From an uncultured Acidobacteriota bacterium (GTDB lineage: Bacteria > Acidobacteriota > Thermoanaerobaculia > UBA5066 > Gp7-AA6), in NCBI GenBank assembly GCA_963782585.1, contig CAWAKL010000001.1, positions 250,133-314,132 on the forward strand: 64,000 nt of DNA. Reading direction: 5' to 3'. Made by a program: the position numbers and the translations under genes. The notes under the pieces are model-generated. The model was given only the letters and a program-made list of their open reading frames with translations. It was not told the origin of the DNA and did not search any database. Of the stretch, positions 8,635 to 59,650 are shown in pieces (the first letter of the stretch is position 1; the number at the start of each line of letters is the position of its first letter).

Positions 8635-10136
8635 ATGTCGACGCCGGTCATCATGCCCCAGATGGGCGAGTCCATCGCCGAGGGCACCATCACCAAGTGG
8701 CTCAAGAAAGTCGGCGACACGATCAAGCGCGACGAGCCGATCTTCGAGATCTCGACCGACAAGGTCGACGCCGAGATCCCCTCGCCGGTCGCGGGAACGC
8801 TCCTCGAGATCAAGGTCGCCGAGGGTCAGACGGTGGCGATCAACACGGTCGTCGGGACGATCGGCGAAGCGGGCGAACAAGCCGCCTCGGCACCAGCCAC
8901 CGCCTCCGCCGAAGCTACGGAGGTCAAGCCCGCTGCCCAGCCGCCAGCGGCGCCTGCTCCGGCGGCTCAGGCCGACGGCGCTTCGGCCAAGACCACCGCC
9001 TCCGCCGAGGCTACGGCGGTCAAGCCGGCGCCGGCTCCGCCGGCGGCCCCACCCGCTCCCGCGCGGCCCGCGGCCGCTCCGCCCGCCACCGCCGTCCGCC
9101 GAGGCTCCGGCCGTCAGGGCCCCCGCACCGCGTGTCGAGCCTGCCCCGAGCGCCGGCGGCCAGGTCGAGTCGATCGAGGAGCGCATCCGCCGCAAGTCCT
9201 CGCCCCTCGTCCGCAAGATTGCGCAGGAAAACGCGATCGACATCTCCGAGATCGAGGGCACCGGCATCCACAACCGCGTCACGAAGAACGACGTCTTCTC
9301 CTACCTCGAGAACCGCAAGGTCGCGCAGGCGCCCATCCGCGGTTCGGCCGCGCCGGCCGAGGCGCCCGATGGTCGGACGGGCCGAGCCGGCGGAAGCGCC
9401 CGCGCCGCGCCCGGCGATCCCGGTGACCGAGCGGGATGAAGTCGTCGCGATGTCCAAGATCCGGAGGATCACCGCCGAGAACATGATGCTCTCGAAGCGG
9501 ACCTCGGCGCACGTCACCACCGTCTTCTCGGTCGACTACACGAACATCGCGCGGCTGCGGGCGAAGCACAAGGACGACTTCCTGGCGAAGAACGGCGTCA
9601 AGCTCACGTACCTGCCCTTCATCTTCCGGTCCGTGATCCAGTCGATTCCGCAGTTTCCCCAGGTCAACGCGTCGATCGACGGGGAAAACATCGTCTACCA
9701 CAAGGACGTGCACCTCGGGATGGCCGTGGCCCTCGACTGGGGCCTCATCGTTCCGATCATCAAGAACGCCGACGAGAAGTCGATCCTCGGCCTGGCCCGC
9801 GCGTCGCAGGACCTGGCCGAGCGCGCCCGCACCAAGCGCCTGAAGCCGGAGGAGATCCAGGGCGGCACGTTCACCGTGACGAATCCGGGGGTGTTCGGCT
9901 CGCTCTTCGGGACGCCGATCATCCCGCAGCCGCAGGTCGCGATCCTCGGTGTCGGCACGATCGAGAAGCGGCCCGTGGTGGTTAACGACGAGAACGGCCA
10001 GGACGCGCTGGGCATCCGGACGACGGGCTATCTCGCGCTGTCCTTCGATCATCGCCTGATCGACGGCGCCGACGCCGATCAGTTCATGGCGGCCGTCAAG
10101 AAGACCCTCGAGACGGGAGAGTTCGACCTCGGTTAG
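8635..10136 (+). pseudogene. Dihydrolipoamide acyltransferase (E2; lipoyl domain + E3-binding domain + catalytic domain), interrupted by two +1 frameshifts (about 9085-9095 and 9365-9375) inside Ala/Pro-rich linkers
   Basis: ATG 8635 preceded by AGGGAGGAG. The lipoyl domain (frame 1) carries IFEISTDKV around the lipoyl-lysine. The E3-binding domain SPLVRKIAQENAIDISEIEGTGIHNRVTKNDV is readable only in frame 2. The catalytic domain (DHRLIDGA) is in frame 0. Confidence 0.75.
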
Positions 10137-10139
10137 GGA

Positions 10140-11364
10140 TCTCGAGGTCCCCCGGCTCGGCCGGCGAGCCGCCGCCGGGCTCTTCCTGCTCGCACTCGCC
10201 GCGCGAGTCGCCGCGATCGCCTGGTTCGGGATCGCGACCACGCGCTTCGGCGACGCGCAGTCCTACCGGCGGGCCGCGGCGGAGCTCGTCGAAACCGGCC
10301 GATACCCGAAACGCACCGAGCCGTACTACTTCCGGGCGCCCGGCTATCCGTTCTTCCTGGCCGCGGCGACGCTCGGCCATCCCCGGTCGGTCGTGGCCGG
10401 AAAGGCGGTCAACGCGGTCGTCGGCGCCCTCGGCGTCCTCGTTCTCGCCGCGCTGTCGGCCCGGATCTTTCGAAGCCGGAGGATCGCGCTGGCGACCGGG
10501 ATCGCCGGCGCGCTGCACCCGGGCCTCGTCATGCTCTCGACCGACGTCCAGAGCGAGCCGCTGTTCGTCCTGCTCCTGCTGTGCTCGGCGTACCTCCTGC
10601 TCGTCGCCGCTGATCGGCCGTCCTCGAATCTCGCCATCGCGGCCGGGGCGGGACTCGCGCTCGCCGCCCTCACTCGCCCCTCTGCTCTCGCGCTCGCGCC
10701 GCTCGTCGCGGCTCCCCTCTTCGACCGGCGCTGGCCGTGGCGCGTCCGCGGGCAGGTGGCGGCCTCGGCGGTCCTGGGGCTCTTTCTGACCCTGCTGCCC
10801 TGGACGCTCCGCAACGCCCTGGTCTTTCGCGAGCTCGTGCCGGTCAACGACGCCGCCGGCAGCGCCTTCTACCAGGGCAACTCCGACTGGATGGTCCGTT
10901 TCTACGAGGTCGAGTCGCTCCCGGAGTACCGGACCTGGGTGACCGCGGCGTTCTCCGATCTCGAGCGCGAGACGAGGCGGATCGACGAGGCGAGCGGAGG
11001 CTCGCCGGCGGCGTTGTCCCGACACTTCGTCCGGAAGACGTTCGAAGAGCGCCGAGGCGATCCCGGCGGCTGGGCCCGCCTGCTCGGGCGCAAGGCCTGG
11101 GACTGGCTCCGGCCGTATCCGAGCCCGCTGTTCTGGCCCCCGTGGGTCCTGTGGGTCGTCGGGTCAGTCAACGTCCTCGTCGCGGTGTTCGCGGTTCGCG
11201 GCTTCGCGAGAGCGCCGGGAGGCGTGCGCGCCTTCGCGCTGACCTATCTCGCCGTGACCATGCTCGCGCACGTTCTCTTCATCGTCGTGTGGCGCTACCG
11301 GATCGCCTCCTGGGATCCCGTGCTGCTCCTCTTCGCGGCGCCGGGCGCTCTGGGACGCCGATGA
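10140..11364 (+). CDS. PMT_2/ArnT-like (GT39/GT83-type) GT-C membrane glycosyltransferase; 5' end uncertain (no canonical start codon upstream of first ATG at 10393)
   Basis: The frame is open from just after the E2 stop and encodes the N-terminal TM helix plus the FGDAQSYRRAAAELVETGRY motif (DxxxY-like region). Only the ATG at 10393 is a canonical start. Confidence 0.6.
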
Positions 11365-12152: not shown

Positions 12153-12161
12153 ACTGTCCGC

Positions 12162-13774: not shown

Positions 13775-13783
13775 GGAGACAGC

Positions 13784-23020: not shown

Positions 23021-23045
23021 AGGGCTTAGGGTAACCACAGCCGAC

Positions 23046-43169: not shown

Positions 43170-44065
43170 TTACCCCTTGGCCGTCCGCATCTGGGCGACG
43201 CGTCCCGGCGCGCGCTTGGCCGGCTTCCGCGCAGGCGCTTGTTCGCCGGACGCAGCCTTCTTCGTATCCGCCGTAGCCTTGGCGGAGGCGGAGGGCTTCT
43301 TTGCGAGGCTCGCCTTCAGGGCTTCCATCAGGTCGATGATCTGGCCGCCGCCCGTGGCCTCGGGAACGATCGAGATGTCCTGGCCCTCGACCTTCTTCTG
43401 GATGAGGCCGAGCACGCGCTTTTTCACGTCGTCCTCGTAGGTCTCGGGCTTGAAGGCGTTCGCGGCGCGCTGCTCCACGAGGAGCTTCGCGAGATCGAGC
43501 TCCTTCGAGCTGACCTCGGCCGGCTCGAGCGGCACTTCCGAGAAGGACCGGACCTCGTCGGCGTAGAGGAGCTGCTGCATCACGATCCCGTTCTCGAAGG
43601 GTCGGAGCATGACGAGGTACATCTTTCCGCGAGCGGCGTACCGGGCGAGGGCGACCCGCCCGGTCTCCTTCATGACCTCGGAGAGGAGGGCGTACGCTTT
43701 GGCGCCGCCCTTGTCGGGGCCGACGTAGTAGGTCCGCTCGAAATAGACCGGGTCGACTTTCGTGATCGGCACGAACTCGACGACCTCGACCGACTGGGTC
43801 GACTGCTCTTCGAGGGCCTTGAGCTCCTCGGGCGTGAAGGTGACGTAGCGGTCCTTCGAGAACTCGAAGCCCTTGACCATCTGGTCGCGGGGCACGATCT
43901 CGCCGTCCTTCGTGCAGATGTACTGCTGCTTGAGGCGCGCGCGTCCTTCGCGTGCAGCATGTTGAAGGAGACTCCCGCCGAGGCATCCGAGGCGGCGTAG
44001 AGCTTGATCGGGATCGAGACGAGCCCGAAGGAGATGGTCCCTGACGCTATCGGCCTTGCGCTCAT
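43170..44065 (-). CDS. ku: Ku protein (NHEJ) with an apparent single-base frameshift near 43940-43950 in a GCGCGCGC run
   Basis: N-terminus MSARPIASGTISFGLVSIPIKLY…FNMLHAKD in one frame. Continuation …RLKQQYICTKDGEIVPRDQMVKGFEF… through to the Lys-rich tail in the adjacent frame. Confidence 0.8.
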
Positions 44066-44111
44066 AGGTTTAGGGACCGACAAATGTAACATGCCCGCGG
44101 AGTCATAGTTC

Positions 44112-46636
44112 TTGCCCCTCGAGAAATACAGGCAAAAACGGTCGGCGGATTCCACCCCCGAGCCCTTCGGCCGGGGGGGTGAAAATCGCCCGCATCTCTT
44201 CGTCGTTCAGAAACATGCGGCCACCCGGCTCCACTGGGATTTCCGCCTCGAGTGGGCCGGCGTCCTGAAGTCCTGGGCCGTGCCGCAGGGCCCCTCCGCC
44301 GACCCGGCCGACAAGCGCCTGGCCGTCGAGGTCGAGGACCACCCGGTCGAGTACGCTGATTTCGAAGGCGTCATCCCCGACGGCAACTACGGCGCCGGCG
44401 AGGTCATCGTTTGGGACCAGGGCCGCTGGACTCCGCTCGCCGACCTCGACGAGGGGTTGAAGAAGGGCAAGCTCCTCTTCGAGCTGCACGGCTACAAGCT
44501 CCGCGGCACCTGGACCCTCGTCCGGATGAAGACGAAGGGCAAGACGACCGGCAAGGAGTGGCTCCTCATCAAGGAGCGCGACGGGTGGGCGAAGAAGGGG
44601 CCCGAGGCCGCGTACCCGCAGGAATCGATCTTCTCGGGCCTCACGATCGAGGATCTCAAATCCGGCAAGAGCCGGGCGGACGAGATCCGCGCCGAGCTCG
44701 AGAGACTCGGGGCGCCGCGCAGGAGAGTCCGGGCCGCGGACGTCAAGCTGATGCTGGCCGAGACGCGCGACTCCGCGTTCACGCGGCCCGGCTGGATCTG
44801 GGAGCTCAAGTACGACGGCTATCGCCTCCTGGCGGGGCGCGAGAGCGGAAAGACGATCCTGCGCTACCGGCACGGCATGGACTCGACGGCGACGTTTCCG
44901 GAGATCGCCCGCGCCGTGTCCGCTCTCCCCTGCGACGCCTTCGTCCTCGACGGCGAGGTCGTCGTGCTCGACCCGAGCGCGCGGCCGCGGTTCGGACTTC
45001 TGCAGAAGCGCGGCCTCCTCCAGCGCCGCACCGACATCGAGCGCGCCGCGGTCGAGCTTCCGGCGACGTACTTTGCCTTCGATCTTCTCGGCTTCGAGGA
45101 CTACGACCTGCGAGGCCTGCCGCTCTCGACCCGCAAGGCGCTCCTGCAGCGCTTCGTGCCGAAGGCCGGGCCCCTCCGCTTCGCCGACCACATCGAGGAG
45201 AAGGGCGACGACCTGCTCGCGGCCGCGGGCGAGCTCGGCCTCGAAGGCGTCGTCGGGAAGAAGGCGGACTCGACGTATCGCGGGGCGCGCTCCGCGGACT
45301 GGCTCAAGGTGAGGCTCGATCGCGCGGGCGATTTCGCCGTGGTCGGTTACACGAAGCCCGACGGCGGACGCTCGGGATTCGGCGCGCTGCATCTGGCCTA
45401 CTGGCAGGAGGGCGGACTGCGTCTACGGCGGCCGCGTCGGCACGGGGTTCTCGGACAAGCAGCTGCGCGAGATCCACGCCCGACTCGAGAAGAGCGTTCG
45501 GGAGAATCCCGCGTTCGGCGGCGCCGTCCCGACCGGACGCGACCACGTCTGGGTCGAGCCGGAGATGGTGGTGGAGGTGCGCTTCAAGGAGTGGACGGGC
45601 GACGGGCTCCTGCGGCATCCCGCGTTTCTGCGCCTGCGCGAGGACAAGCCGATCGAGGAGTGCGTGCGCGAGGCCGACCCGGGCAGCCATGAGCCGCCGG
45701 CCCGAACCGCCGTAGCCTCGGCGAAGGCGGTCGAGAAGGACGAGAAGACCGTCCCGTTCTCGAACCTCACGAAGGTCTTCTGGCCGGACGAGGGCTACAC
45801 CAAGGGCGACCTCATCGAGTACTACCGGGCGATCTCGCCGTGGCTCCTCCCCTATCTCGCCGACCGTCCGCTCGTCATGACCCGCTACCCCGACGGCATC
45901 GACGGCAAGTCGTTCTTCCAGAAGGACGCCCCCAACTTCGCGCCGGACTGGATCCGACTCGAGCGCATCTGGAGCGAGCACGCCGAGCGCGAGATCGACT
46001 ACTTCGTCTGCGACGACCTCGAGACGCTGCTCTACGTCGCGAACCTCGGCTCGATTCCCCTCCACGTGTGGGCCAGCCGCGTCGCCGCGCCGGAGCGGCC
46101 GGACTGGTGCATCCTGGATCTCGATCCGAAGGGCGCCCCGTTCTCGCACGTCGTCACGATCGCCCGGGCGATCCGCGAGCTCTGCGAGGAGATCGAGCTG
46201 CCGAGCTTCATCAAGACGAGCGGAGCGACGGGCCTCCACGTCCTCATCCCGCTCGGCGGCCAGTGCACGCACTCGGAGTCGCGCGTCTTCGGCGAGATCC
46301 TCGCCCGCGTCATCGAGCAACGCCACGGCAAGATCGCCACGACGGCCCGGGCCATCGGAGCCCGCGACGGAAAGGTCTACGTCGACTATCTCCAGAATGG
46401 CCACGGCAAGACGATCGCCGGGCCCGTTCTCGGCGCGGCCCGTCCCCGGCGCCACCTGCTCGGCGCCCCTGAAGTGGAGCGAGGTGGACGGGAAGCTCGA
46501 CCCGAAGAAGTACACGCTGAAGACGCTTCCGGCGCGGATGAAGAAGCTGAAGGACGATCCGCTCGCGCCGGTCCTGACGCTCAAGCCGGATCTGCAGAGC
46601 GCCCTGACGAAGCTGACCGGACGGCTCAAGCCGTGA
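44112..46636 (+). CDS. ligD: Multidomain LigD (phosphoesterase + ligase + polymerase) with two apparent +1 frameshifts (about 45405-45420 and about 46430-46445)
   Basis: TTG 44112. PE domain (FVVQKHAATRLHWDFRLE…), ligase (ELKYDGYR), polymerase (…FIKTSGATGLHVLIPL…). The three parts are in frames 0, 1 and 2 successively. Divergent from ku. Confidence 0.8.
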
Positions 46637-47235
46637 GACAGCGCCGCGCGACTCCGATCACGTCGCCGATGAGCCAGGTCGCGGCGGCCGCGACGCGAGG
46701 ATAGACGACCCGGCCGTCGACGGCGAGGCCGCGCCGCTCGAGCGCCGAGAGGAGCGTATCGGGCTCCGGCACGCGCATCCTCTCGAAGGAGTGCGTCGCC
46801 AGAGGATAGAACCCCCTCAGGAAGCGGCCGGTGACCCACTCGAAGTAGTAACGCCCGCCGGGCTTGAGGACGCGCCGGACTTCGTCGAGCGCCTGCTCCC
46901 AGGGCGCAATGAAATGAATCGCTCCGAAGTCGAAGACCGCGTCGAACGTCGCGTCCCGGAAGGGAGTGCCGGTCGCGTCGGCGAGAAGCACTCGAGCGCT
47001 CCGCGGGCGCGCGGGCGAGCATCCGAGGATCGAGATCGATCCCGACGATCTCGGCGAGTCCGAAGCGCTCGCGCAGCATCGCGAGCGCGGCGCCCCGACC
47101 GCAGCCGACTTCGAGACCCCGCCCGCCGGGAACATGACCGCCGAGGCGCTCGAGCCACGGGGCCATGAAACGCCGCTGCAGAAAGGCCCGCAACGGGTTG
47201 TTCATCGAGGCCCGGCCGAGCGCGTTGAGCCTCAT
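46626..47235 (-). CDS. SAM-dependent methyltransferase with an apparent frameshift near 47000-47012
   Basis: ATG 47235 overlaps the DUF72 stop (ATGA). GLEVGCGRGAA motif, then the frame switches to …FDFGAIHFIAPWEQALDEVRRVLKPGG…. Confidence 0.6.
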
Positions 47236-47934
47236 GGCGTCGCGAAGCGGCGCAGGAACTCGGCGGCCAGCTTCGGCCCCGAGCCCGCGTCCTCGTGCTT
47301 GAAGAAAACGTACGCGTCGCTCCACGCTCTGCCCCCGGACCTTCTCCGCCCAGGCGGCCACGGCCGCGTCGTCGTAGTCCTGACGGCGGAGACGCAGGTA
47401 CCCCCATCCGGCGGTGGCGACGAGAGGCGTCGCGAGCTCCTCGTCTTCGGCGACGCAGAGGGCCGCGCCGCGCGCACGGAGCGCGGCAAAGACGTCCTCC
47501 TCGAACCACGAGGCGTGGCGGAACTCGAATGCCGCCCGCGCACCCTCGGGCAGCACGCCGAGGAACGCCTCGAGGCGCGGCAGGTCCTTCTTCAGGTTGG
47601 GCGGAAGCTGGAAGAGCGCGGGCCCGAGCCGATCGCCCAGCGTCGACGCGGTCTGGAAGAAGTACTCGACCTCCGCTCCCGCCTCCTTGAGCCGCTTGAA
47701 GTGCGTGATCCTCTGCGAGGCCTTCAGGACGAAGCGGAACTCGGCCGGAACCTGCGCGGCCCACCCTTCGAGCAGCGCGGGCTTGGGCATCCGGTAGAAG
47801 GTGTTGTTGATCTCGACCGCGGGAAGCTTCGCGGCGTAGTACGCGAGCATCTCTTCCGCGGGGAGATCTTCCGGATAGAAGCTCCCCTTCCACTCTTTGT
47901 ACGAGAAACCGCTCGTCCCGGCGAGGACGCGCAT
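47232..47934 (-). CDS. DUF72-family protein with an apparent frameshift near 47340-47370
   Basis: N-terminus MRVLAGTSGFSYKEWKGSFYP. The characteristic C-terminus …YVFFKHEDAGSGPKLAAEFLRRF is in a different frame. Confidence 0.65.
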
Positions 47935-47964
47935 GGCGAAACTCTATACTCTCGGCTCCTCCGC

Positions 47965-49482
47965 ATGACCGTCCCCCGCTTCGACCCGAAACGCCGGCGA
48001 GCCGTCACGATCGCCCTCCTGCTCGTCACGGCGCTCGCGTCCTTCGAGGCGACCGTCGTCTCGACCGCGATGCCGACGATCATCGGCGATCTCGGCGGCC
48101 TCGCCCTCTACTCCTGGGTCTTCGCGATCTACCTGATGACGGCGACGGTCATGATGCCGATCTACGGCCGCCTCGCCGACATCTACGGGCGCCGCCGCAT
48201 CCTCCTCACCGCCGTGTCCGTCTTTCTGGCGGGCGCGATCGCCTGCGGCTTCGCCCACTCCATGCCCCAGCTCATCGCGGCGCGCGCCCTGCAGGGCCTG
48301 GGCGCCGCCGGCCTCGTGCCGATCGCCCTCACGGTCTCGGCCGACCTCTACTCGCTGGAGGAACGCGCCAAGGTCCAGGGCCTGTTCTCCGGAGTGTGGG
48401 GCGTCGCGAGCCTGATCGGTCCGCTCCTCGGCGCGTGGATGACGATCTCCTTCGGCTGGCGCTCGATCTTCACGATCAACATTCCCCTGGGCCTCATCGC
48501 GCTGATCCTCGTGGCGACGCAGATGCAGGAGTCCCGCGCGGCCCTGCCCGACCCGCTGGATTTCGCCGGCGCGGCGACGCTCGTGGCCGGAATCGCGGGC
48601 CTTCTGTTCGCGGTCCTCCACCGGCCCGCCGAAGCGGCGATGCCCTTGCTCTGGCGCGCGGCGATCTTCGCGGCCGCCGCTCGGATCGCTCGCCCTCTTC
48701 GTGCATCTCCAGAATCGGCGGACGCATCCTCTGGTGCCGCCGGTGCTCTTCCGCCGGATGGCGACGGCGGCGCCCGTTCATCGCGGGCGTGCTCCTCGGC
48801 ACGACCATCTTCGGCGTCGACACGTTCGTGCCTCTCTTCGTGCAGGGCGCGCGCGGCGGAACGGCGGGCGCCGCCGGCGCGGTCGTCACGCCGCTCGTTC
48901 TCCTCTGGGCCGTCTCCGCCACGCTGGCGGCGAAGCTCATCGTCCGTTTCGGCTTTCGGCGAACCGCCCGCTGGGGCGCGCTGCTCTCGCTCGCGGGTCT
49001 CGTCGCCCTCATGGCCGCCGCCTGGTGGAATGCCTCCGTCCCCTGGATCTCGGCCGCGTGCGCGCTCGTCGGCGCCGGCCTCGGACCGTCGTCGATGTCG
49101 CAGGTGCTGGCGGTGCAGGCGTCGGTGCCCGAGCGTCAGCGCGGCGTCGCGACGGCGCTCGTTCCGTTCTTCCGCACGCTCGGGGGCGCCGTCGGAGTCG
49201 GGGCGCTCGGAGGCCTCCTCGCGATGGGCCTCCTTCAGCGGCTGGGGCCTGCGGCGGAGAGCGCGGGACGGCTCCTGGCGGCGGGGCATGGCGACGTCGG
49301 TGACCGCGACCTCGGTCGATCCCGCGGCGTTCCGCCTCGCGATCGAGCGCTCGCTTCTGCCGGTCTTCGGCATCCTCATCGGCCTCGCCGTCGTCAACGT
49401 CCTCGTGACCGGGCGCTTCCCGGAGCGCGCCGTCGCCGAGGTGGATTCGCCGGCGGAGAAGGTGATGCTTTCCGTCGATTGA
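47965..49482 (+). CDS. MFS transporter (DHA2/EmrB-like), apparently interrupted by three +1 frameshifts (about 48690, about 48775, about 49290)
   Basis: ATG 47965. TM-rich MFS signature (GRLADIYGRRR). Successive segments read in frames 1, 2, 0 and 1. Confidence 0.65.
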   Translation: MTVPRFDPKRRRAVTIALLLVTALASFEATVVSTAMPTIIGDLGGLALYSWVFAIYLMTATVMMPIYGRLADIYGRRRILLTAVSVFLAGAIACGFAHSMPQLIAARALQGLGAAGLVPIALTVSADLYSLEERAKVQGLFSGVWGVASLIGPLLGAWMTISFGWRSIFTINIPLGLIALILVATQMQESRAALPDPLDFAGAATLVAGIAGLLFAVLHRPAEAAMPLLWRAAIFAAAARIARPLRASPESADASSGAAGALPPDGDGGARSSRACSSARPSSASTRSCLSSCRARAAERRAPPARSSRRSFSSGPSPPRWRRSSSSVSAFGEPPAGARCSRSRVSSPSWPPPGGMPPSPGSRPRARSSAPASDRRRCRRCWRCRRRCPSVSAASRRRSFRSSARSGAPSESGRSEASSRWASFSGWGLRRRARDGSWRRGMATSVTATSVDPAAFRLAIERSLLPVFGILIGLAVVNVLVTGRFPERAVAEVDSPAEKVMLSVD

Positions 49483-50383
49483 GCTCGGCGTAGCCGTAGA
49501 CGAGCGCGAGGCCCCGGTGCGGCGCCCAGCGCTCGGCGAAGCGGCGCATGTCCTCTTCCTTGGCCTTCGAGGTCGTCGCGTGGCCGAGCAGTCCCTGCGC
49601 GAGGTACTTCACGACGCCGAGATCGCCCGCGGGAAAGATGTCCGTCCGGCCGAGGCCCCTCAGGAGCCCGATCTCCGCCGTCCAGCGACCCACGCCGCGA
49701 AACGAGGTCAGCCGCCCGATCGCATCCTCGTCGGAGAGCGGCGTCAGGCTCTCCTCCGAGACATCGCCGGAGGCGAAGGCCCTCCCGATCTCCCGGATGG
49801 CGACGGCTTTCGAGCGCGAGAGGCGAAAGCGCCGCAGGCGAGGAAGCGTCTCGGCGGCGAGCGGCTCGGGCCCGGGAAAAGAGATGTAGGTCTCGCCCGA
49901 GAAGCGGGCGCGGCGCCCGTAGGCGAGACAGAGCTCGCGGCGGATGTCGTAGGCGAACTTGAGGTTGACCTGCTGCGCCAGGACCGCTGTCACGAGCGCC
50001 TCCCACAGCGACGGGACGCCCGCGATGCGGAGCCCTCGGAACGCCCGGATGGGCGCGCAGAGAACCGGGTCGGCGCCATGCGACCGGTAGAAGCCCGCCA
50101 CGGCCGTCGAGGCGCCGAGCGAACGATCGACGACCTGGCGGGCCGCCTGTTCCGCGGCAGGAGAATCTGCCGTTCTCCCCTCGAGCCGCACGTCGAGCAC
50201 GGCCCGCGAAGCCGGCCCGAGCTGCTCGACCGAAAGGAGCACCCCGCGCGTTCCGACCGGGAGGAGCCGCCGGTAGACGCGTCCGTCGAAGCGATCCACC
50301 ACCTCGGGAAACCGGGTGTAGCGCTCGGCCGTCAGGGCGAGCGAGTAGGGACGCGGCGGCACCACCGTGAAGCGAACTGGCAC
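49394..50383 (-). CDS. DNA-3-methyladenine glycosylase II (AlkA) family
   Basis: HhH-GPD-like region (…FRGVGRWTAEIGLLRGLGRTDIFPAGDLGV…). The C-terminal roughly 25 aa (PSPPANPPRRRRAPG…) overlap the MFS 3' end and may be a frame artefact. Confidence 0.7.
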   Translation of the reverse strand: MPVRFTVVPPRPYSLALTAERYTRFPEVVDRFDGRVYRRLLPVGTRGVLLSVEQLGPASRAVLDVRLEGRTADSPAAEQAARQVVDRSLGASTAVAGFYRSHGADPVLCAPIRAFRGLRIAGVPSLWEALVTAVLAQQVNLKFAYDIRRELCLAYGRRARFSGETYISFPGPEPLAAETLPRLRRFRLSRSKAVAIREIGRAFASGDVSEESLTPLSDEDAIGRLTSFRGVGRWTAEIGLLRGLGRTDIFPAGDLGVVKYLAQGLLGHATTSKAKEEDMRRFAERWAPHRGLALVYGYAELNRRKASPSPPANPPRRRRAPGSARSRGR

Positions 50384-50456
50384 TCGACCTCCTCAACACC
50401 GAATGATGTCACCGGGTTGCGACTATGATTCGCGCGACAGAAGTAAGGAGGACGGA

Positions 50457-50816
50457 ATGCGGTTTCTTCTCCGGCTCCTGATCAACGCCGTGGCGCTGTG
50501 GGTCGCCGTCAAGATCGTCCCCGGGATCTCCTACACCGGTGACTGGCTTCCCTTCCTCGGCGTCGCCCTGATCTTCGGCATCGTCAACGCGTTCATTCGC
50601 CCGATCGTCAAGCTGTTCACGCTGCCGATCATCTTCCTCACGCTCGGCCTGTTCGCCCTCGTCGTCAACGGCCTGATGCTCTGGCTGACGAGTTGGCTCT
50701 CGACGGGGTTCGGCGTGAACTTCCACGTCGAGGGCTGCCTCGCGGCGATCCTCGGCGCGCTCGTCGTGAGCGTGGTCAGCGCGCTGCTGTCGATGTTCCT
50801 GCCGGACGGGGACTAG
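50457..50816 (+). CDS. Phage_holin_4_2-family small membrane protein (4 TMS)
   Basis: ATG 50457 preceded by AAGGAGG. 119 aa, very hydrophobic. Confidence 0.65.
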   Translation: MRFLLRLLINAVALWVAVKIVPGISYTGDWLPFLGVALIFGIVNAFIRPIVKLFTLPIIFLTLGLFALVVNGLMLWLTSWLSTGFGVNFHVEGCLAAILGALVVSVVSALLSMFLPDGD

Positions 50817-51004
50817 CCGTCGCTAGGCGCGGCGCTCCGGGTCTGCGCCGTGGCGCACCGGCCTGCGGCTCGCCCAAAGGGGCTCGACCGCAGGCCTGAC
50901 CCTGCGCTTCGCGCTTCGCTCCCGCGGCGCGAACCTCCTCCCTACCTTCGGTCGGGAGACTATTCGCGCCGCGAGCAAAGAGACCAGCGCGGCGAGTGGA
51001 GGTA

Positions 51005-52520
51005 TCAGGTCGCGGAGAGACGCCCCGCGAGAAGAGCCATCCGGCGAAGCCGCTCGGCCTCCTCCGGCCGGAACGCCCAGTCCGGCGCGCGCCAGGTCCA
51101 GTTGCCGGCGGGCTCGGCGGGCGTGTTCATGCGGGCCTCGCCGCCGAGGCCGAGCACGTCCTGCACAGGAACGAGCGCCACGCCGGGCGACGGAGCCGTA
51201 GGCCGCGCGGATGAGCGCCCAGTGGACCTCGCTGCCGTCCGAGCCGAGGTAGTCGTACACCCGTTCTCGCTCCTCGGGCTTGAGCGCCGCGTACCAGCCC
51301 TTCGCCGTGTCGTTGTCGTGGGTGCCCGTGTAGACGAGCGCGTTCTCGGTGTGACGATGCGGCAGGTATTCGCTGTCCGCTCCGTAGAACGCGAACTGCA
51401 GGACCTTCATCCCCGGAAAGCCGAGCTCGGCGAGAAGGGCCTTCACGTCCGCGTCGATGTCGCCGAGATCCTCCGCGACGATGGGAAGCGGGTCTCCCCC
51501 GAGCGCGACGCGAGCGGCTTCGAAGAGTTTCGCGCCGGGACCCGGGACCCACTTTCCGTTCAGAGCGGTTGTTTCGCCGGCGGGCACGGCCCAGTACGCC
51601 GAGAACGCGCGGAAGTGGTCCATGCGAAGGAGGTCGCAGAGGCGCAGGTTCGCGCGCAGCCGCTCGATCCACCACTCGTAACCCGTCGTCTCCGCCTGTT
51701 CCCAGTCGTAGAGTGGGTTGCCCCAGAGCTGGCCGGTCTCCGAAAAGTAATCCGGCGGCACGCCGGAAACGGCCATCGGCTGCCCCATCTCGTCGATCTG
51801 AAAGAGGTCGGGGTGTGCCCATACGTCCGCCGAGTCGAGCGAGACGTAGATCGGCACGTCGCCCATGATCTCCACGCCGCGCTCCTTCGCCGCGGCGCGC
51901 ACGCGGTCCCACTGGCGGAAGAAGAGGTACTGGAGGTAGGCCTGAAAGGACACTTCCGCCTCCAGCTCTCCGGTGGCTCGCTCCAGCGCGTCCGGCTCGC
52001 GCTGCCGCAGGTCCTTGTCCCACGACGTCCAGGGCCGACCCGAGAAACGCGCCTTGAGGGCCGCGAAGAGCGTCCAGTCGGCGAGCCACGCCGCACGTTC
52101 CGGCGATTTCCGAAACTTCTCGAGCTCGTCCCGCGCCGGATCGCCGGCGTGGGCCAGGAAGTGGTCCCAGGACTGGTGGAGGATGCGCTCCTTCCAGCGG
52201 ATCACCGACGGGAAGTCCACGCGCTCCTTCGAAAACGTCGGCAGATCCTCGAAGGCCGAGACGGGAAGGAATCCGTCCTTCAGCAGAAGCTCCGGCGAGA
52301 TCAGCAGCGGATTCCCGGCGAAGGCCGAGGCACCGCCGTAGGGCGCGCCGCCGCCGCCGATCGTCGTCAGCGGCAGCACCTGCCACAGTGTCTGGCCGGC
52401 CGACTTCGCCCAGTCGAGGAAGCGATCCACCCACGGACCGAAGTCGCCGATACCGAACGGGCCCGGAAGCGACGTGGGGTGAAGGAGAATTCCGGCGGAC
52501 CGGGGCGCCGAAGACGTCAC
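51005..52520 (-). CDS. malQ: 4-alpha-glucanotransferase MalQ (GH77) with an apparent frameshift near 51170-51180
   Basis: GTG 52520 overlaps the glgP stop (GTGA). The C-terminus …ALVPVQDVLGLGGEARMNTPAEPAGNWTWRAP… is in the neighbouring frame. Confidence 0.8.
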
Positions 52521-55128
52521 GAAGCCGGAGTGTAACGCCTCGCACTGCGGCTCTCTTCTCCCCACCAGAGAACGAGCCCGGTGTCGTTCGGGTGCGCGAG
52601 GTCGCGATGCGTCGGGCGGACGCGGACCGTGTAGCCGAGGTTCTCGTCCTGGGGCTTGCGGTGGGTCAGGCGGAAGATGCCGGTCTCGCCTTCGCGCGCC
52701 GCGGGCTCGAGCCGGGTGACGGCGCCGGACTCGAGGCGCCCGTCCTCCTCGATCGGCCCCTCGAAGAGCTCGACCGAGACTTCCGACGCGTCGAGGGGGC
52801 CGAGGCGGACCCGCGCCAGCGACGTCGAAGGGCGCGGCCGGAGGAAGCGTGGCCGGATCGGGAACGACCTCGACGCTTTCGAACGCGACGCCGGGCCACG
52901 CGCCGCGCACCCGTTCCTTCCAGGCCACGAGGCGCTTGAGCGGCTCGCGCCCGCCGTCCTTCATCGCCCGCCGGTAGAACGCGCCCGGCAGATAGCAGTA
53001 CTTGAGGTACTCCGCGACCATGCGGTCGGACGAAAACTCCTGGGCCACGCGCGAGGCTGCGACGATCATGCGGTCGAGCCAGCGCTGGGGCGTGCCGGTG
53101 GCGTCGCGGTCGAAGAACATCGGGCAGGACGCGCTTCTCGAGCGTGTCGTAGAGAGCGCGGACGATCTCCTCCTCCGGCATGTGGTCGACGGCCTCCCCG
53201 ACGGCGAACCCGGCCTCGTCGTGCGGGGCTTCGTCCCACCATCCGTCGAGGACCGAAAGGTTGAGAGCGCCGTTCATCGCGGCCTTCATGCCCGAGGTTC
53301 CGGACGCCTCGCGCGGCCGCTCGGGCGTATTCAGCCAGACGTCGCAGCCGGCGACGAGCTGCCGGGCGAGAGCCATGTCGTAGTCCGACAGAAGGACGAT
53401 GCGGCCGCGGAACTCCGGGCGCGCGGCGGCGACCGAGACCGCACGCAGGTACTCCTTGCCGGCCTCGTCCCGCGGATGCGCCTTGCCGGCGAAGAGAATC
53501 TGGACCGGGCGCCCGATCTGGTGCAGCAGGTACTCGAGGCGCTTGGGCTCGCGGAAAAGGAGCGTCGCGCGCTTGTAGGTCGCGAAGCGCCGGGCGAAAC
53601 CGATCGTCAGGGCTTTCGGGTCGAGGGCCCGTCCGGCCTCGGCGATCTCCTCCTCGCGCGCGCCCTGCCGACGCTTCTCCTCGACGAGCTTCTCGCGACA
53701 GGCCGCGACGAGCTTCGCGCGCAGGGCCTCGTGCGCCTGCCAGAGCTCCGTGCGATCGACGGCCTCGGGAGCCTCCACGACTCCCGTCTGTGCGATCTCG
53801 GGCGCGGTCCAGGTCGCCGCGTGCACGCCGTTGGTGATCGGCAGGATCGGGATCTCGGAAAGCGGCAGATCGGGCGCGACGTTGCGCCAGAGCTTGCGCG
53901 ACACCTCGCCGTGCAGCTTCGAGACGGCGTTCTGGTGCGTCGAGAGCCGCATCGCGAGGACCGCCATCGAAAAGAGCTCCCGGCGGTCTTCTCCCACCTC
54001 GCGTCCCAGGTCGAAGAATTCGTCGAAAGAAATGCCGAGCTCGTCGACGTAGGAAGCAAAGTACTTCCAGAGAAGCTCCGGCGTGAAGACGTCGATCCCC
54101 GCCGGCACGGGCGTGTGCGTCGTGAACACGTTGCCGCTCGTGGCCGCTTCGCGAGCCTCGGCGAAGGTCAGATGCTCTTCCTGCACGAAGCGGCGGATCC
54201 TCTCGAGCGAGACGAAGGCGGCGTGGCCCTCGTTGATGTGGCGGATGGTCGGCCACTGCTGGACCCTCTCGAGCGCGCGCAAGCCGCCGATACCGAGAAC
54301 GATTTCCTGCTGGAGCCGCATCTCGTGGCCGCCGCCGTAGAGCCGGGCCGTGACTTCGCGGTCGGGCGGCTCGTTCTCCGGCAGGTTCGAGTCGAGAAGC
54401 AGGACCGGGACGCGGCCGACCCGGGCCAGCCGGATGAGGAGATTCACGTTGCGTCCGGCGAGATTCACCGAGACGACCGGCGGCGACCCGTCCGGCGGCT
54501 CGGCGACCGACAACGGCAGCTCGTCGGGCTCGAGGACCGGGTAGGACTCCGTCTGGCGGCCTTCGCCGTCCACGACCTGGCGGAAGTAGCCCTCGCGGTA
54601 GAACAGACCCACTCCGGTCATGGGGACGCCGAGATCGCTGGCGGACTTCAAGAGGTCGCCGGCCAGGACGCCGAGGCCGCCGGCGTAGATCGGGAGCACC
54701 TCGGTCAGGCCGAACTCCGCCGAGAAGTATGCGATCCGCTCTCCCCGCGCGACGAGCTCGCGGGCGGCGGCGTCGCGAGGCTCGGCCCGGTCTTCCTCGG
54801 CGAGCTGCGCGACCATGGCGAGGACTCGCGCCTGGAACTCCGGATCCTCCGCGGCCCGCCAGAGTTTCTCCGCCGACGCCTCCCGGAACAGCCGCATGGG
54901 GTTGCCGCGGACTTTCCGCCAGGCCTCCGGGTCGATCCCTTCGAAAAGCGCGCGCAGGTCGGCGCGCCACGTCCATCGGAGGTCGTGCGCGAGGGCGAAG
55001 AGTGGGAGGAGCTTTTCGGGAACGCCGGAGACCCGAAGCGCCTTTTCGAGGACGGGTGTCAATCCAACAGGGAGTGTAACAGAGCGACCGGCGACACTAG
55101 CGGCTGTGGGATGGTGTCTCCGGGTCAT
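52517..55128 (-). CDS. glgP: Alpha-glucan (glycogen/maltodextrin) phosphorylase, GlgP 'more_P_ylases' type, with two apparent frameshifts (about 53115 and about 52830)
   Basis: N-terminus …LAHDLRWTW…, with conserved core blocks. The C-terminal domain (…LARVRLGPLDASEVSVELFEGP…VLWW…) is readable only in a third frame. Confidence 0.8.
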
Positions 55129-57566
55129 CCGCGTCGTCGCCCACGCGCACAGCGAGCTTGTCGCCGAGGGCGCGGAAACGCTCCACCCACTGCGTCGCGG
55201 TGGACGAGCCTCCCTCGGCGGACCGGCGCATCACCGGCAGGACCGTCCGCGACAGCTCGTAGTACGCGTTCTGGGCCTTGCCGAAGTCGACCTCGAAGGG
55301 CAACGACTTCGCGAGCGCGACGACTCCCTCGAAGGTCTCGATCAGCTCGGCGTCGTCGGGCTTGCCCGCGAGCCGGCCCGAGAGACGCGCGACCGTCTGC
55401 TCGAGAGCGAGGCCCAGGCCGTCCTCGTGGAGCGTGATCCCCGCGTGGCCGGCTTCCTCGAGGAGCGCGCGCATCCGTCCGAGGTCGGGCCGCGGGGCCT
55501 CGAGGGCCTGCTTGAAACCGGTGGCGAGCGCGCGCTCGGCCGCCACTGCGAATCCGCGCGGCAGGCGCACGCCGTGGCCGGAGAGGAACCGCATGAGCGG
55601 CGCGTGCTCTTCGTAGAGCCGGCGGTAGACGTCGTCGGCATGCTCGAGGGCCGAGGCCAGGATGATGCGGACGACCTGCCTCTGCTCGTCCTTGAACAGG
55701 AGACGGAGCGTGTAGACGTCGGAGCCGAAGCGCCGGTCGACCAGCCGCAGGGTCTCCGTCAGGTCCGCGGCGGCGAAGGGCGCGGAGATCTCCCGGACGA
55801 GCTCCTCGTACTCCTTCTCGTCGGTGAAACGCGTCACCCCGCCGGAGAGGTTGTGGTCCCCCAGATGGAGGACGCCGAAGACGACACGCTCCGACTCCTC
55901 GGTGATCACCGAGGTGACCCGGACCCGGCCGAGCGCGAGTCGGGCGCGGCCGCTCGGCAGCTTCCGGTAGTCCTCCCGCTCCACGCGGTAGCAGTAGACG
56001 GGCGCCGTGTCCGCATACTCGGTGAAGAGGGAGTGCACGGCGTAGTGCGCGGCGACGCGCTCGAGGGTGACGCGCGCCGGGCGGACGGAGTGCTCGTAGA
56101 TGCGGCGGCCGTCCCCCGCCTCCGGGTCGTTGCTCTTCGCCAGCGCGAGCGTCTCGAGAAACGGCGCCTCCAGATCCGTGCCCGGGAAGACGTCCCGGCA
56201 GAGCTCCAGGGCCCGCCCGGCGTACTGGAGGATCTGCCGGGCCTCGATGCCGCCGATGTCGTCGAAGAACCAGCCGCAGCTCGTGTACATGAGCTGCGCG
56301 TGCCGCTCCATCTCCAGAAGCTTCAGGGCCCGGATGCGCTCGGCGCCCTCCAGCGCGCGCTGGCCGTGCCGGCCCAGAAAGCGCGCGACGCTCTCGCGTG
56401 CGCGGTCGAGGATGACGTCGACGTAGTCGTCGCGCGCCGCCCAGGGGTCGCGGAAGATCTTTCCCGCGGCCTCTGTATAGAGGGGCGCCAGTCCGTCGCG
56501 CAATCCATCCAGCGCCTCGCGCAGGGGCGCGCGCCAGTCCTGGCGCCACGCCGGGTGAGCCTCCGTGCGGCAGCCGCAGTGGCTCCGCCAGCGCTCGATG
56601 CCGTGCGCGCAGCTCCACGACGTGGCCTCCAGGATCCGGACCTCCTCGGTCGGAGGGTGGGCCTCGAGAAACTCGGCGTAGTTCGTCAGACGCGCCCGCC
56701 CGGCCGTCTCGATCGTGCGGAGCGCGTAGGCGAGCGCCATGTCGCCGTGGCGATGGTGGTGGCCGTAGGTCTCGCCGTCCGAGGCGATGTGGACGAGCTC
56801 GGGACGCTGGCGCGCCTCGTCGAAGGCCCCCATGAGGCGCTCCGCCAGATGGTCCCCGCGGGACAGCAGCACCGGATCGAAGGCCACCGCGCGCGAAACC
56901 GGGCCGTCGAAGAAGAAGACCGCGATCGAGCCGCCGGACGGCAGGGCCACGCGGTACGGCCGCGTCGGATCGATCCCCTCGGCGGGAACCGCGGACCCAC
57001 TCCCCGTCCCCCGAGCGGACGTGGCTGGCCTGCTGCGGCGCGAGGATCGTGAACCGGATCCCGGCGGCCGCGAGGACTTCGAGCGAGGCCAGGTCCACCG
57101 CCGTCTCGGGCAGCCACATCCCCTCGGGACGCCGCCCGAAGCGGCGTTCGAAGTCGCGAATGCCCCAGGTCACCTGCGTCGTCTTGTCGCGGGCGTCCGC
57201 GAGCGGCAGGATCATGTGGTTGTACGGCTGGGCAATGGCCGAGCCGTGCCCGGAGAAGCGCTCGACGCTCAGGCGGTCGGCCTCGAGAACCGCGGCGTAG
57301 ACGTCGGGCCGCTTCCCTTCGAGCCAGGAGAGGAGCGTCGGCCCGAAGTTGAAGCTCATCGATGCGTAGTTGTTGACGATCGCGACGATGCGGTTCTCCC
57401 CGTCGAGAATCCGGGCGCGCGCATTCGCCGCATAGCACTCCGACGTGATCCGCTCGTTCCAGTCGTGGTACGGGTACGCGGAGTCCTGCGCCTCGATCGC
57501 CTCGAGCCAGGGATTCTCGCGGGGCGGCTGGTAGAAGTGGCCGTGGATGCAGACGAAGCGGTCCAT
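55097..57566 (-). CDS. Glycoside hydrolase family 57 protein with DUF3536-like C-terminal region; one or more frameshifts near 56950-57000
   Basis: ATG 57566 (MDRFVCIHGHFYQPPRENPW, GH57 N-terminal signature). The catalytic region (…SIAVFFFDGPVSRAVAFD…HIASDGETYGHHH…) is in another frame. Confidence 0.75.
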
Positions 57567-57577
57567 GGCTACGCAGG

Positions 57578-59650
57578 CTACGCCGGGGCCAGAACCAGCT
57601 CGACCTCGTCCTCCGGCGTCTCGGCCGCGGCGGTTTCCTGCGCCTTCGCCGGCTCGGGCGCCGGTATCGGCTTGAGAAAGAGCGCCCCGAGAGGAGGCAG
57701 CGAGAGCGCGAGGCTGTGGGAGCGGCCGTGCACGGGAACTCCGAGCGCGACGGCCCGCCCCATGTTGCCGACGCCACTTCCCCCGTAGACCGTCGCGTCG
57801 CTGTTGGCGAGCTCCACCCAGTCCTCTCCTCCGTCGACGCCGACGAGATAGCCGTGGCGCGGCACCGGCGTGAAGTTGAAGACGCCGACGACCCGCTCGC
57901 CGCGTGTCTGGCCGTGGCGCTCGAGAGAGACGATGCTGTGGTCCGCGTCGTTGCAGTCGATCCACTCGAACCCCCGGGGATCGAAGTCGAGCTCGTGGAG
58001 GGCGGGCTCCGCCCGGAGCAGCCGGTTCAGGTCGCGGACCCAGAGCCGCAGTCCGGCGTGCCGCGGATCGTCGAGAAGATGCCAGTCCAGGCTGGTGTCG
58101 TGGTTCCACTCCTTCCACTGGCCGAACTCGCCGCCCATGAAGAGGAGCTTCTTGCCCGGCAGCGCCCACATGTAGGCCAGCAGCAGGCGCAGGCTCGCCG
58201 CCATCTTCCAGGCGTCGCTCCCGGGCATCTTGGAGATCAGCGACTTCTTCAGGTGCACGACCTCGTCGTGCGAGAGCGGCAGCACGAAGTTCTCCGAGTA
58301 CGCGTACATCCGGCGGAACGTGAGCTTGCCGTGGTGGAACTTGCGGTGGATGGGGTCGAGCTCCATGTAATCGAGCGTGTCGTTCATCCAGCCCATGTCC
58401 CACTTCATCGAGAACCCGAGGCCGCCGATGTAGGTCGGACGCGAGACCATCGGCCAGGAGGTGGACTCCTCGGCGATCGTCACGGCGTCGGGGAAGCTCC
58501 GCCCGATTTCCTCGTTGAGCTTCCGGAGGAACACGATCGCGTCGATGTTCTCCCGACCGCCGAACTGGTTGGGCACCCACTCGCCGGCCTTGCGCGAGAA
58601 GTCGAGGTAGATCATCGACGCGACCGCGTCGACCCGCAGCCCGTCGATGTGGAAGCGGTCGAGCCAGTACAGCCCCGAAGACAGCAGAAAGGACCGCACC
58701 TCGTGCCGTCCATAGTTGAAGACGCAGCTTCCCCAGTCGGGCTGGTAGCCCTTGCGCCAGTCAGCGTGCTCGTAGAGGTGGGTGCCGTCGAAGTAGACGA
58801 GGCCGTGCTCATCCGAGGGAAAGTGCGACGGCACCCAGTCGAGCAGAACGCCGATGCCGGCCTGGTGCAGCGTGTCGACGAGATACATGAAGTCCTGGGG
58901 CGTGCCGAAGCGGGAGGTCGGCGCGAAGAAGCCGGTTGCCTGGTAGCCCCACGAGCCGGTGAAGGGATGCTCGTTGACCGGCAGTAGCTCGACGTGCGTG
59001 AAGCCCATCGCGCGCGCGTACTCGGCGAGAAGGGGCGCGGTCTCGCGGTACGTCAGCGAGCGGTTCGCCTCGTCCGGCACGCGGCGCCAGGAGCCGAGGT
59101 GGACCTCGTAGATGGACATTGGCGAGGTCGTGAACGGCCGCTCGCCGCGCCGGCGCATCCACTCGCCGTCGCCCCACGTGTAGTCCAGATCCCAGACGAC
59201 CGAGCCCGTCCGCGGAGGCGGCTCGTGGCGCACGCCGTAGGGGTCCGCCTTGTCGACCGTGTACCCCTGAATGCGCGACAGGATGCGGTACTTGTAGATT
59301 GCGCCCCGGGAAACTCCCGGGATGAAGGCGTCCCAGATGCCGGAGACGCCGACCGCCTGCATTGGGTGCTTCTCGGCGTTCCAGCCGTTGAAGTCTCCGA
59401 CGACCGAGACGGCGGCCGCGTTCGGCGCCCAGACCGAAAACTGCGTCCCCGCGACGCCCGCGACCGTCCTGGGATGGGCGCCGAGCTTTTCGTAAAGCCG
59501 CGCGTGGTTGCCTTCGTTGAAGAGATAGAGGTCGTCGGCCGACAGGAGCTCTTCCCCGTAGCGCGGCGGACCAACCAGCGCTTCGGATCGCCGCCGCGTC
59601 TTTCTCGGCTCCTGCTTCTCCGCCAGTCGAGCCTCCCGTTGGGGAGGCAG
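57578..59650 (-). CDS. glgB: 1,4-alpha-glucan branching enzyme GlgB (GH13); N-terminal region present in-frame up to about 59746 but no canonical start codon found (5' end unresolved)
   Basis: Has …VWAPNAAAVSVVGDFNGWN…, LLDWVPSHF, GLRVDAV and FMGGEFG. The first in-frame ATG is at 59362, about 100 codons into the recognisable protein. Upper coordinate approximate. Confidence 0.75.
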   Translation of the reverse strand: MPPQREARLAEKQEPRKTRRRSEALVGPPRYGEELLSADDLYLFNEGNHARLYEKLGAHPRTVAGVAGTQFSVWAPNAAAVSVVGDFNGWNAEKHPMQAVGVSGIWDAFIPGVSRGAIYKYRILSRIQGYTVDKADPYGVRHEPPPRTGSVVWDLDYTWGDGEWMRRRGERPFTTSPMSIYEVHLGSWRRVPDEANRSLTYRETAPLLAEYARAMGFTHVELLPVNEHPFTGSWGYQATGFFAPTSRFGTPQDFMYLVDTLHQAGIGVLLDWVPSHFPSDEHGLVYFDGTHLYEHADWRKGYQPDWGSCVFNYGRHEVRSFLLSSGLYWLDRFHIDGLRVDAVASMIYLDFSRKAGEWVPNQFGGRENIDAIVFLRKLNEEIGRSFPDAVTIAEESTSWPMVSRPTYIGGLGFSMKWDMGWMNDTLDYMELDPIHRKFHHGKLTFRRMYAYSENFVLPLSHDEVVHLKKSLISKMPGSDAWKMAASLRLLLAYMWALPGKKLLFMGGEFGQWKEWNHDTSLDWHLLDDPRHAGLRLWVRDLNRLLRAEPALHELDFDPRGFEWIDCNDADHSIVSLERHGQTRGERVVGVFNFTPVPRHGYLVGVDGGEDWVELANSDATVYGGSGVGNMGRAVALGVPVHGRSHSLALSLPPLGALFLKPIPAPEPAKAQETAAAETPEDEVELVLAPA

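Follow-up and report, generated by a model that had tools for sequence, protein, structure and literature searches.

Clustered single-base frame breaks in a 64-kb acidobacterial stretch are very probably residual assembly errors

The 64-kb stretch of DNA analysed here in its entirety (the window) contains 15 single-base frame breaks in ten conserved genes, and these are very probably residual errors that a noisy long-read assembly left in its consensus, the real genes being intact. The breaks lack accompanying nonsense codons, leave dN/dS unchanged, are private to the window and are biased towards insertion, a bias that is common to the assemblies of related bacteria. Most of them are concentrated in a single 13-kb block.

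Results

Codon-model segmentation of the window, which has a G+C content of 70 %, located 15 single-base frame switches, none of them at a stop codon (Table 1). For 12 of the 15, confirmation came from tblastn searches using orthologues that are unbroken on related contigs, and the remaining three were confirmed via full-length E2 homologues and the NHL domain of a paralogue; frame hops were seen by tblastn at 15/15 sites. An earlier note on this DNA had listed frameshifted genes and their positions, and every one of the breaks was recovered by segmentation, tblastn and homologues, with the segmentation sites lying at most 10-30 nt from the coordinates given there. The same note counted at least a dozen affected genes, a figure that is reached only if two genes described as missing their starts are included; segmentation gives ten. 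Its statement that the shifts are predominantly +1 agrees with the present data: 13 of the 15 breaks add one base, while two, in ku and in the NHL gene, remove one (sign test p=0.007). When the breaks are repaired, Pfam domains run continuously over the junctions. A Viterbi flag at 22922/23038 was rejected as a frameshift: one gene ends there with a stop at 23018-23020 and the next begins with the ATG at 23046, as at any gene boundary. Rfam and tRNA scans of the 64-kb window returned no matches.

Table 1. Coordinates of the affected genes, their frame breaks and associated features in the window
Feature	Position	Strand	Break and sequence context	Homologue or domain evidence
E2 dihydrolipoamide acyltransferase	8635..10136	+	three frames: lipoyl +0, E3-binding +1, catalytic +2; 21-nt tandem low-complexity repeat at 9034-9092	full-length homologue (P0133) aligns to frames 1/2/3; three Pfam domains on repaired E2
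E2 break 1	about 8931-9098	+	in Ala/Pro linker; placed to this range only	
E2 break 2	9364-9368	+	GCG CCC[G] ATG	
GT-C (PMT_2) gene	10137..11364	+		conserved N-terminal transmembrane segment from about 10150
GT-C (PMT_2) + NHL beta-propeller protein	29055..31760	+	one base missing, about 31283-31287 (TCGGGCGGATCC); frame +0 to +2, between NHL repeats	C-terminus of paralogue (24104-29056) aligns to frame 1 until 31284 and to frame 3 from 31230
Hot stretch	43900..57000		13 kb; ~1 break per 1.1 kb (rest of the window, ~1 per 17 kb)	
ku	43170..44065	-	G missing at 43941/43942 (GAC-GCGCGCGCC; relative, GACGGCGCC)	Ku domain 1-190/190 across junction
ligD (phosphoesterase, ligase and primase-polymerase domains)	44112..46636	+	two extra bases	DNA_ligase_A_C and LigD_Prim-Pol (1-252/254) matches cross the junctions
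ligD break 1	45419/45420	+	extra base, CT[G/C]GTC, no repeat	
ligD break 2	within 46419-46426	+	extra base, GCCGGGCCCG	
SAM methyltransferase	46626..47205	-	one extra base, about 47000-47015; region poorly conserved, position approximate	Methyltransf_11 1-95/95 across junction
DUF72	47232..47934	-	extra base at 47328/47329 (CA[G/A]GCG); G5 run 2-6 nt away, where repair scores only slightly worse	DUF72 domain 1-216/217 across junction
MFS transporter	47965..49482	+	extra bases at about 48681-48685, 48772-48776 (GCGCCCG) and about 49291-49306	MFS_1 1-346/347 over residues 18-409
malQ (GH77 4-alpha-glucanotransferase)	51008..52550	-	extra base at 51178-51181 (CGGC[G/T]GGCG)	GH77 1-460/465 across junction
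glgP, alpha-glucan phosphorylase (DUF3417 + Phosphorylase)	52517..55062	-	two extra bases	846-aa orthologue of relative L014 maps to three window frames
glgP break	53121-53125	-	extra base, CTGCCCGATG	
glgP break	52819-52821	-	extra base, GACGTCGCTGG, no repeat	
GH57 + DUF3536 glycoside hydrolase	55097..57566	-	extra base, about 56974-56977 (GAGGGGATCG); region poorly conserved	Glyco_hydro_57 match, residues 105-309, across junction
glgB	57578..59626	-	no frame break	

The breaks are unevenly distributed, a point absent from the earlier note: 12/15 fall within 43.9-57.0 kb (binomial p=1.3e-6; scan-statistic permutation p about 5e-5). At 0-8.6, 10-43 and 57-64 kb, apart from the break in the GT-C/NHL gene, the genes each occupy one frame and have matches to full-length homologues or Pfam models.

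Sequence context sets the break sites only slightly apart from their surroundings. For about ten sites the position is fixed to a few nucleotides, and at four of these there is a CCC run (CCCG in every case), whereas four others (ligD 45419, DUF72, glgP 52819 and malQ) lie in non-repetitive sequence. The ku deletion is in a GG beside (GC)4, the one dinucleotide repeat encountered, and the NHL deletion is in GGCGG. None of the best-scoring repair positions is in a homopolymer of at least 4, although the DUF72 and GH57 sites have G runs beside them. The placement of nearly all breaks in short G/C-rich simple tracts, as previously proposed, was therefore not upheld when homopolymer and dinucleotide-repeat context was checked as had been suggested. 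Across the window 13 % of bases are in runs of at least 3 and 43 % in runs of at least 2, and for this reason the contexts can barely be distinguished from the 70 % G+C background; the enrichment of homopolymers (4/10 sites versus 13-20 % background) is weak.

It was also considered that the extra bases might represent both alleles kept at third codon positions that are polymorphic between strains, as in glgP (CT[G][C]CCG, against CTG in relative L013 and CTC in L014) and malQ (C[G][T]G, against CGG and CTG in relatives). This idea was not adopted, because ~2/3 of random insertions would look alike and the observed proportion (about 7/11) agrees with that expectation.

The affected genes carry no other mark of inactivation: once repaired, all ten are free of in-frame stops and larger lesions, and no larger deletions or IS elements were found in them. 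Values of dN/dS are 0.10-0.26 downstream of the breaks, 0.04-0.22 upstream and 0.11-0.23 in intact neighbours. At every break site in the window at least one relative is intact (for the 12 sites in 43.9-57 kb, the intact comparator is at least one of L013 and L014), the breaks of the relatives are located where the window is intact, and no break is common to the window and the relatives.

These relatives, L013-L016, are Mb-scale ENA metagenome contigs with 'contig_N' names (ERZ25039485/533/558/591), features that mark them as long-read in type, and it is from this style that we infer a technology common with the window; the Nanopore soil project PRJEB58634 is their putative origin. They contain 9, 8, 22 and 7 breaks, respectively, per about 20 kb (46 in total in 84 kb), of which 39/46 are of the one-extra-base type, and in a one-base repair test about 25/31 gave a much higher alignment score, which confirms them. 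E2 lacking its lipoyl domain is found in 11/12 relatives on ENA contigs >40 kb versus 0/4 on JGI contigs of at least 30 kb (Fisher p=0.003, by our own arithmetic). The best homologues of malQ and E2 share 85 % and 94-95 % identity, with no conspecific sequence among them, and an exact-protein look-up of the MacB-like gene returned no record.

Two further genes lack canonical starts. In the GT-C gene at 10137, ATG, GTG and TTG are absent in every frame before 10393, and the same is true of its closest relative, L015. In glgB there is no in-frame ATG, GTG or TTG from 59746 down to 59362; an in-frame CTG at 59626-59624 lies 5 nt past a GGGAGG motif, and both elements are kept in L013. The absence of canonical in-frame starts noted previously thus stands, but the suggestion that they were lost through error probably does not, since the absence is common to relatives. 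From this conservation, the start-less 5' ends are probably genuine features with non-canonical starts.

Discussion

The proposal that the breaks result from systematic insertion and deletion errors in the assembly is strengthened by the lesion spectrum, the unchanged dN/dS and the comparison with relatives. Natural indel mutation in bacteria is biased towards deletion. The relatives show the opposite tendency, and the insertion-biased breaks of the window and the four relatives are a common technical signature. The contig would most likely be the product of long-read (Nanopore-type) metagenome assembly, its source being an uncultured Thermoanaerobaculia-like Acidobacteriota, and its consensus would have gained 13 spurious bases and lost 2; a gene caller would read each error as a frameshift and so split or truncate the ten genes. 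In Nanopore-only soil metagenomes assembled with Flye and one Medaka round indels persist, and a near-finished consensus requires about 40x depth (PMC12313526; PMC9262707; PMC13087279). Two observations count against an error model: clustering in 13 kb differs from a uniform error process, and most sites are outside homopolymers, the classical Nanopore failure mode, such that a homopolymer subtype of assembly artefact does not describe these data. The hot stretch may reflect locally poor read support or polishing, for example low depth, strain mixture or an unpolished chunk.

The most serious competitor, albeit an improbable one, is that the frameshifts exist in the organism itself and arose only very recently: a mutator, or a lineage or dominant strain in decay, would have just lost the function of a block of genes for NHEJ, glycogen metabolism and transport. 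Such an event would explain why the breaks are concentrated in one block of adjacent genes and why several genes are hit 2-3 times, as expected after gene death, and it would leave dN/dS unchanged. It does not sit well with a spectrum of insertions opposite to the natural bias, with the lack of nonsense codons, larger deletions and IS elements or with the breakage of essential-type genes such as E2, and it would require independent and equally recent decay in four related assemblies, elsewhere in the same genes. Extending real, recent insertion-biased +1 lesions in core genes (NHEJ, glycogen metabolism, E2) to a whole soil Thermoanaerobaculia-like clade, which would either tolerate them by some kind of +1 decoding or be undergoing parallel hypermutation of a syntenic block, is considered very unlikely.

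Less credible again are the two explanations in which the breaks are functional. Programmed +1 ribosomal frameshifting or transcriptional slippage could read through them and would account for the strong +1 direction bias, but it is effectively refuted by the finding that none of the sites is conserved in orthologues. Furthermore, the sites have no common slippery motif, two are of the -1 type, no best-scoring site is in a homopolymer of at least 4, and neither a 0-frame stop nor a rare codon is present where the frame shifts, each upstream frame remaining open for a further 100-2000 nt. The chance that the genes are phase-variable contingency loci, switched on and off by slipped-strand indels in simple-sequence tracts, is equally slight: the (GC)4 beside the ku site and the four CCCG sites point in that direction, but the tracts are no longer than 3 nt (with one 8-nt GC repeat), which is far below slipping lengths, the tract content matches background with four sites free of any repeat, and the sites are scattered along the bodies of genes for housekeeping enzymes.

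If the breaks are consensus errors, as we believe to be very probable, then gene and pseudogene counts from the window cannot be trusted. Their value is in quality control only, as artefact and not real biological feature. About 10 of the ~58 genes in the window (17 %) would be mis-called as split or as pseudogenes, and pathway inference would wrongly score NHEJ repair, glycogen cycling and the 2-oxoacid dehydrogenase complex as lost. The related public metagenome contigs call for the same caution, and parts of them are more heavily affected, with as many as 22 breaks in 20 kb. Such genomes need frameshift-aware gene calling or read-based polishing, and error density should not be assumed to be uniform along a contig or limited to homopolymers.

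Several known systems offer partial parallels. Contingency loci are familiar from poly-G/C phase variation in Neisseria, Haemophilus and Campylobacter, which resembles the window in that indels occur in a G/C-rich context; however, those tracts usually comprise at least 7 units and occur in surface or restriction-modification genes close to the 5' end, whereas in the window no homopolymer run at a site exceeds 3 nt and the sites lie within genes of metabolism and repair. Programmed +1 frameshifting is known from prfB and from many +1 sites in Euplotes, and poly(A) transcriptional slippage from endosymbionts. These share with the window a mostly +1 change of frame, but they are conserved in position and depend on motifs, while the window sites are unique and motif-less. 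Pseudogenes accumulate in decaying genomes, e.g. those of Mycobacterium leprae and recent host-restricted symbionts, and decay of the M. leprae type is similar in that many housekeeping genes are frameshifted, some with multiple hits; true decay brings deletional bias, nonsense, larger deletions, IS activity and relaxed dN/dS, none of which is seen here. The indel artefacts of long-read assemblies (Nanopore, PacBio CLR), as exposed by the IDEEL test, are classically homopolymer deletions, whereas the breaks described here are mostly insertions (13/15), mostly outside runs of at least 3 and clustered in 13 kb. Nevertheless, the likeness is that single-base indels split conserved genes, at a density set by the assembly and not by the gene, with orthologues free of the breaks and contigs of the same style affected alike (PMC9262707; PMC13087279; 10.1101/2021.08.23.457338).

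Results

Single-base breaks in conserved genes

A codon-usage model trained on the long unambiguous ORFs of the window was used for a seven-state Viterbi segmentation, with one state for each of the six frames and one for non-coding sequence and no in-frame stop allowed, and same-strand frame switches were scored as breaks where the segment did not terminate at a stop codon of its own frame. G+C is 65-73 % across the 64-kb window and ~0.9 at third codon positions, so the true reading frame is easily followed. Fifteen breaks were detected in ten genes, matching item for item the frameshifted genes listed in the earlier note; a sixteenth flag, at 22922/23038, is an ordinary gene boundary and not a frameshift.

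Frame breaks and other features of the window (coarse, site placed no better than ~10-170 nt)
Feature	Extent	Viterbi switch	Resolved site and lesion, or content
E2 (dihydrolipoamide acyltransferase)		frame +0 to +1 to +2 (two switches)	linker 1, coarse; 9364-68, CC to CCC before G
GT-C/NHL	29055-31760 (+)	~31287	deletion within GGCGG
ku		~43939	deletion, GG to G, adjoining (GC)4
ligD (fused, three domains)	44112-46636	~45418	45419/20, insertion, no repeat
ligD		~46466	46419-26, CC to CCC before G
Methyltransferase (MT)		~46990	coarse
DUF72		~47318	47328/9, insertion, no repeat
MFS 1		~48677	coarse
MFS 2		48770	48772-76, CC to CCC before G
MFS 3		49282	coarse
malQ		~51184	51178-81, insertion, no repeat
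glgP		~52866	52819-21, insertion, no repeat
glgP		53123	53121-25, CC to CCC before G
GH57		~56991	coarse
Start-less GT-C stretch	10137-10392		conserved N-terminal transmembrane segment
Second NHEJ-type set	16975-18890 (-)		LigD-type primase-polymerase 16994-17881; ATP-dependent ligase 17882-18844
Glycosylation cluster	18760-31760		737-aa DUF2298 membrane protein, GT4, methyltransferase, epimerase, 1651-aa PMT_2 + DUF2298 + NHL-propeller fusion and, after it, a second ~900-aa PMT_2 + NHL protein
ORFs without Pfam match	31764-36482 and 40599-42158		685 aa (-), 189 aa (-), 673 aa (+), 519 aa (-)
glgB upstream element	59624-59648 (-)		GGTAGACTGCCTCCC...GGGAGG

By annotation, the homologues of the window's proteins come from Acidobacteriota or Thermoanaerobaculia MAGs. 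The proteins of the window itself are absent from the searched collections: an exact look-up gave no record, and the best identities are 85 % (malQ) and 94-95 % (E2 catalytic domain). Two syntenic metagenome contigs, L013 (411 kb) and L014 (4.1 Mb), were reached via malQ homologues and share with the window the gene order MerR/TPR, ku, ligD, (MT), DUF72, MFS, HhH-GPD, holin, malQ, glgP, GH57, glgB. When their intact proteins were aligned to the window by tblastn, each orthologue changed frame exactly at the predicted sites: LigD (817 aa) matches 44112-45410 in frame 3, 45418-46446 in frame 1 and 46421-46534 in frame 2, and three segments of the phosphorylase (846 aa), each in a different frame, match 55062-53122, 53126-52815 and 52831-52520. 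For E2, full-length homologues put the lipoyl domain in frame 1, the E3-binding domain in frame 2 and the catalytic domain in frame 3, and the NHL break is borne out by the C-terminus of the adjacent 1651-aa protein, which is paralogous. Furthermore, in a Pfam search of the conceptually repaired proteins, models cross the repaired junctions (Ku 1-190/190, LigD_Prim-Pol 1-252/254, DUF72 1-216/217, MFS_1 1-346/347, GH77 1-460/465).

Lesion type and context

Nucleotide alignments, and scoring of all one-base repairs against the orthologue, show that the lesions are single-base events, 13 of them extra bases and two (ku and NHL) missing ones (sign test p=0.007). Segmentation, homology and the one-base repair scan confirm the core observation of the earlier note in count, position and direction. 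Its further statement that nearly all shifts lie inside short G/C-rich simple tracts is weakly supported: among the placeable sites a 3-nt CCC run is found at four and (GC)4 beside ku, but four others have no repeat, although at DUF72 a repair in a G5 run 2-6 nt away scores just slightly worse. As 13 % of bases in the window lie in runs of at least 3 and 43 % in runs of at least 2, the description fits the background as much as the sites. Placement of five sites is coarse because the surrounding sequence is poorly conserved or of low complexity. The E2 inter-domain linker (8930-9100) is unusually long, holds a duplicated ASAEAT(E/A)VKPA...PAAP segment as well as a low-complexity repeat with a period of 21 nt (9034-9092), and is where E2 is broken in most long-contig relatives too.

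Clustering of the breaks

The region 43.9-57.0 kb makes up 20 % of the window but contains 12 of the 15 breaks (binomial p=1.3e-6; scan-statistic permutation p=5e-5), and only three lie in the ~50 kb flanking this 13-kb block. Single-frame alignments to the related contigs L015 and L016 were obtained for the genes at 0-8.6 kb and 10-18 kb, those at 18-42 kb have full-length Pfam matches and MacB (59.8-62.5 kb) is intact against L014, so the clustering is not detection bias. All breaks detected in L013 are also confined to one 11-kb block (3968-14907 of the locus).

Start codons of the GT-C gene and glgB

Missing starts of these two genes had also been listed as signs of error. For the GT-C (PMT_2) gene, directly 3' of E2, no ATG, GTG or TTG occurs in any frame from the E2 stop (10134-10136) to 10393; the closest relative, L015, has a start-less stretch too (~9716-9845), conserved at the protein level. 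glgB has an in-frame CTG at 59626-59624, 5 nt 3' of GGGAGG on the minus strand, and L013 keeps the GGAGG-N5-CTG arrangement. The element upstream of glgB is conserved in L013 (~2790-2830), and its GCCTCCC and GGGAGGC are able to pair as a hairpin; no Rfam match to it was found. Since the window and the independently assembled relatives have these missing starts in common, random error would not account for them and they are not to be counted as evidence of error. Judged from sequence conservation, both starts are probably genuine and non-canonical or otherwise unusual, and glgB may use a CTG start with a structured leader.

Other genes

The second NHEJ-type set consists of separate genes and is additional to the fused ligD; in L016 its PrimPol ORF is artificially joined to a radical-SAM gene through that contig's own frame error. 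Giant GT-C/beta-propeller fusions such as those of the glycosylation cluster are, to our knowledge, little characterised. No Pfam match was found for the four long, strongly coding ORFs in the table.

Discussion

The breaks are very probably residual consensus (assembly indel) errors and not a biological feature, as the earlier note had proposed. No stop codons or larger lesions were found in the ten repaired genes, and dN/dS (Nei-Gojobori, window pieces against the orthologue) is 0.10-0.26 downstream of the breaks, 0.04-0.22 in upstream pieces and 0.11-0.23 in intact neighbours, the sole outlier (0.6) being a poorly conserved MFS tail of 57 codons. No break was found in common between the window and its relatives, whose own fall where the window is intact (L013: glgB, GH57 x3, glgP x2, HhH-GPD, DUF72 x2; L014: glgB x2, HhH-GPD x2, ligD, ku). 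The same detector found 9, 8, 22 and 7 breaks per ~20 kb on the four related contigs, 39 of 46 (85 %) of the one-extra-base type; ~25 of the 31 with a window homologue were confirmed by a large alignment-score gain after one-base repair, mostly outside homopolymers, as in the window. The lipoyl domain is absent from 11 of 12 long-contig E2 relatives from ENA and 0 of 4 from JGI (Fisher p=0.003), thus breakage tracks data source. Meanwhile, natural bacterial indel spectra are deletion-biased, the opposite of the insertion bias of the window. Taken together, these lines of evidence make consensus error by far the best explanation.

That breaks occur in blocks in both the window and L013 suggests uneven read support or uneven polishing, and the 13-kb hot stretch may stem from low local depth, heterogeneous strains assembled together or a part left unpolished. 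Tandem retention of both alleles at polymorphic sites was also considered, but gained no specific support, as about two thirds of random insertions give the same pattern. The breaks matter chiefly as a warning for annotation. Deposited gene calls on the four related contigs include split, truncated and antisense ORFs; in L014, for instance, a 344-aa ORF was called on the strand opposite the broken glgB.

All four related contigs belong to ENA metagenome assemblies (L013, ERZ25039485; L014, ERZ25039533; L015, ERZ25039591; L016, ERZ25039558), and their Flye-style 'contig_N' names and lengths of up to 4.1 Mb indicate long-read metagenomics; the sequencing platform of the window and relatives is one that we infer. 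Near-finished Nanopore consensus needs ~40x depth (PMC9262707), and frameshift truncation is commoner in soil ONT assemblies than in HiFi ones (PMC13087279). The 15 coding-detectable indels in 64 kb, ~23 per 100 kb, fit modest read depth and exceed several-fold the ~4 per 100 kb reported for a well-covered mock community (PMC13087279).
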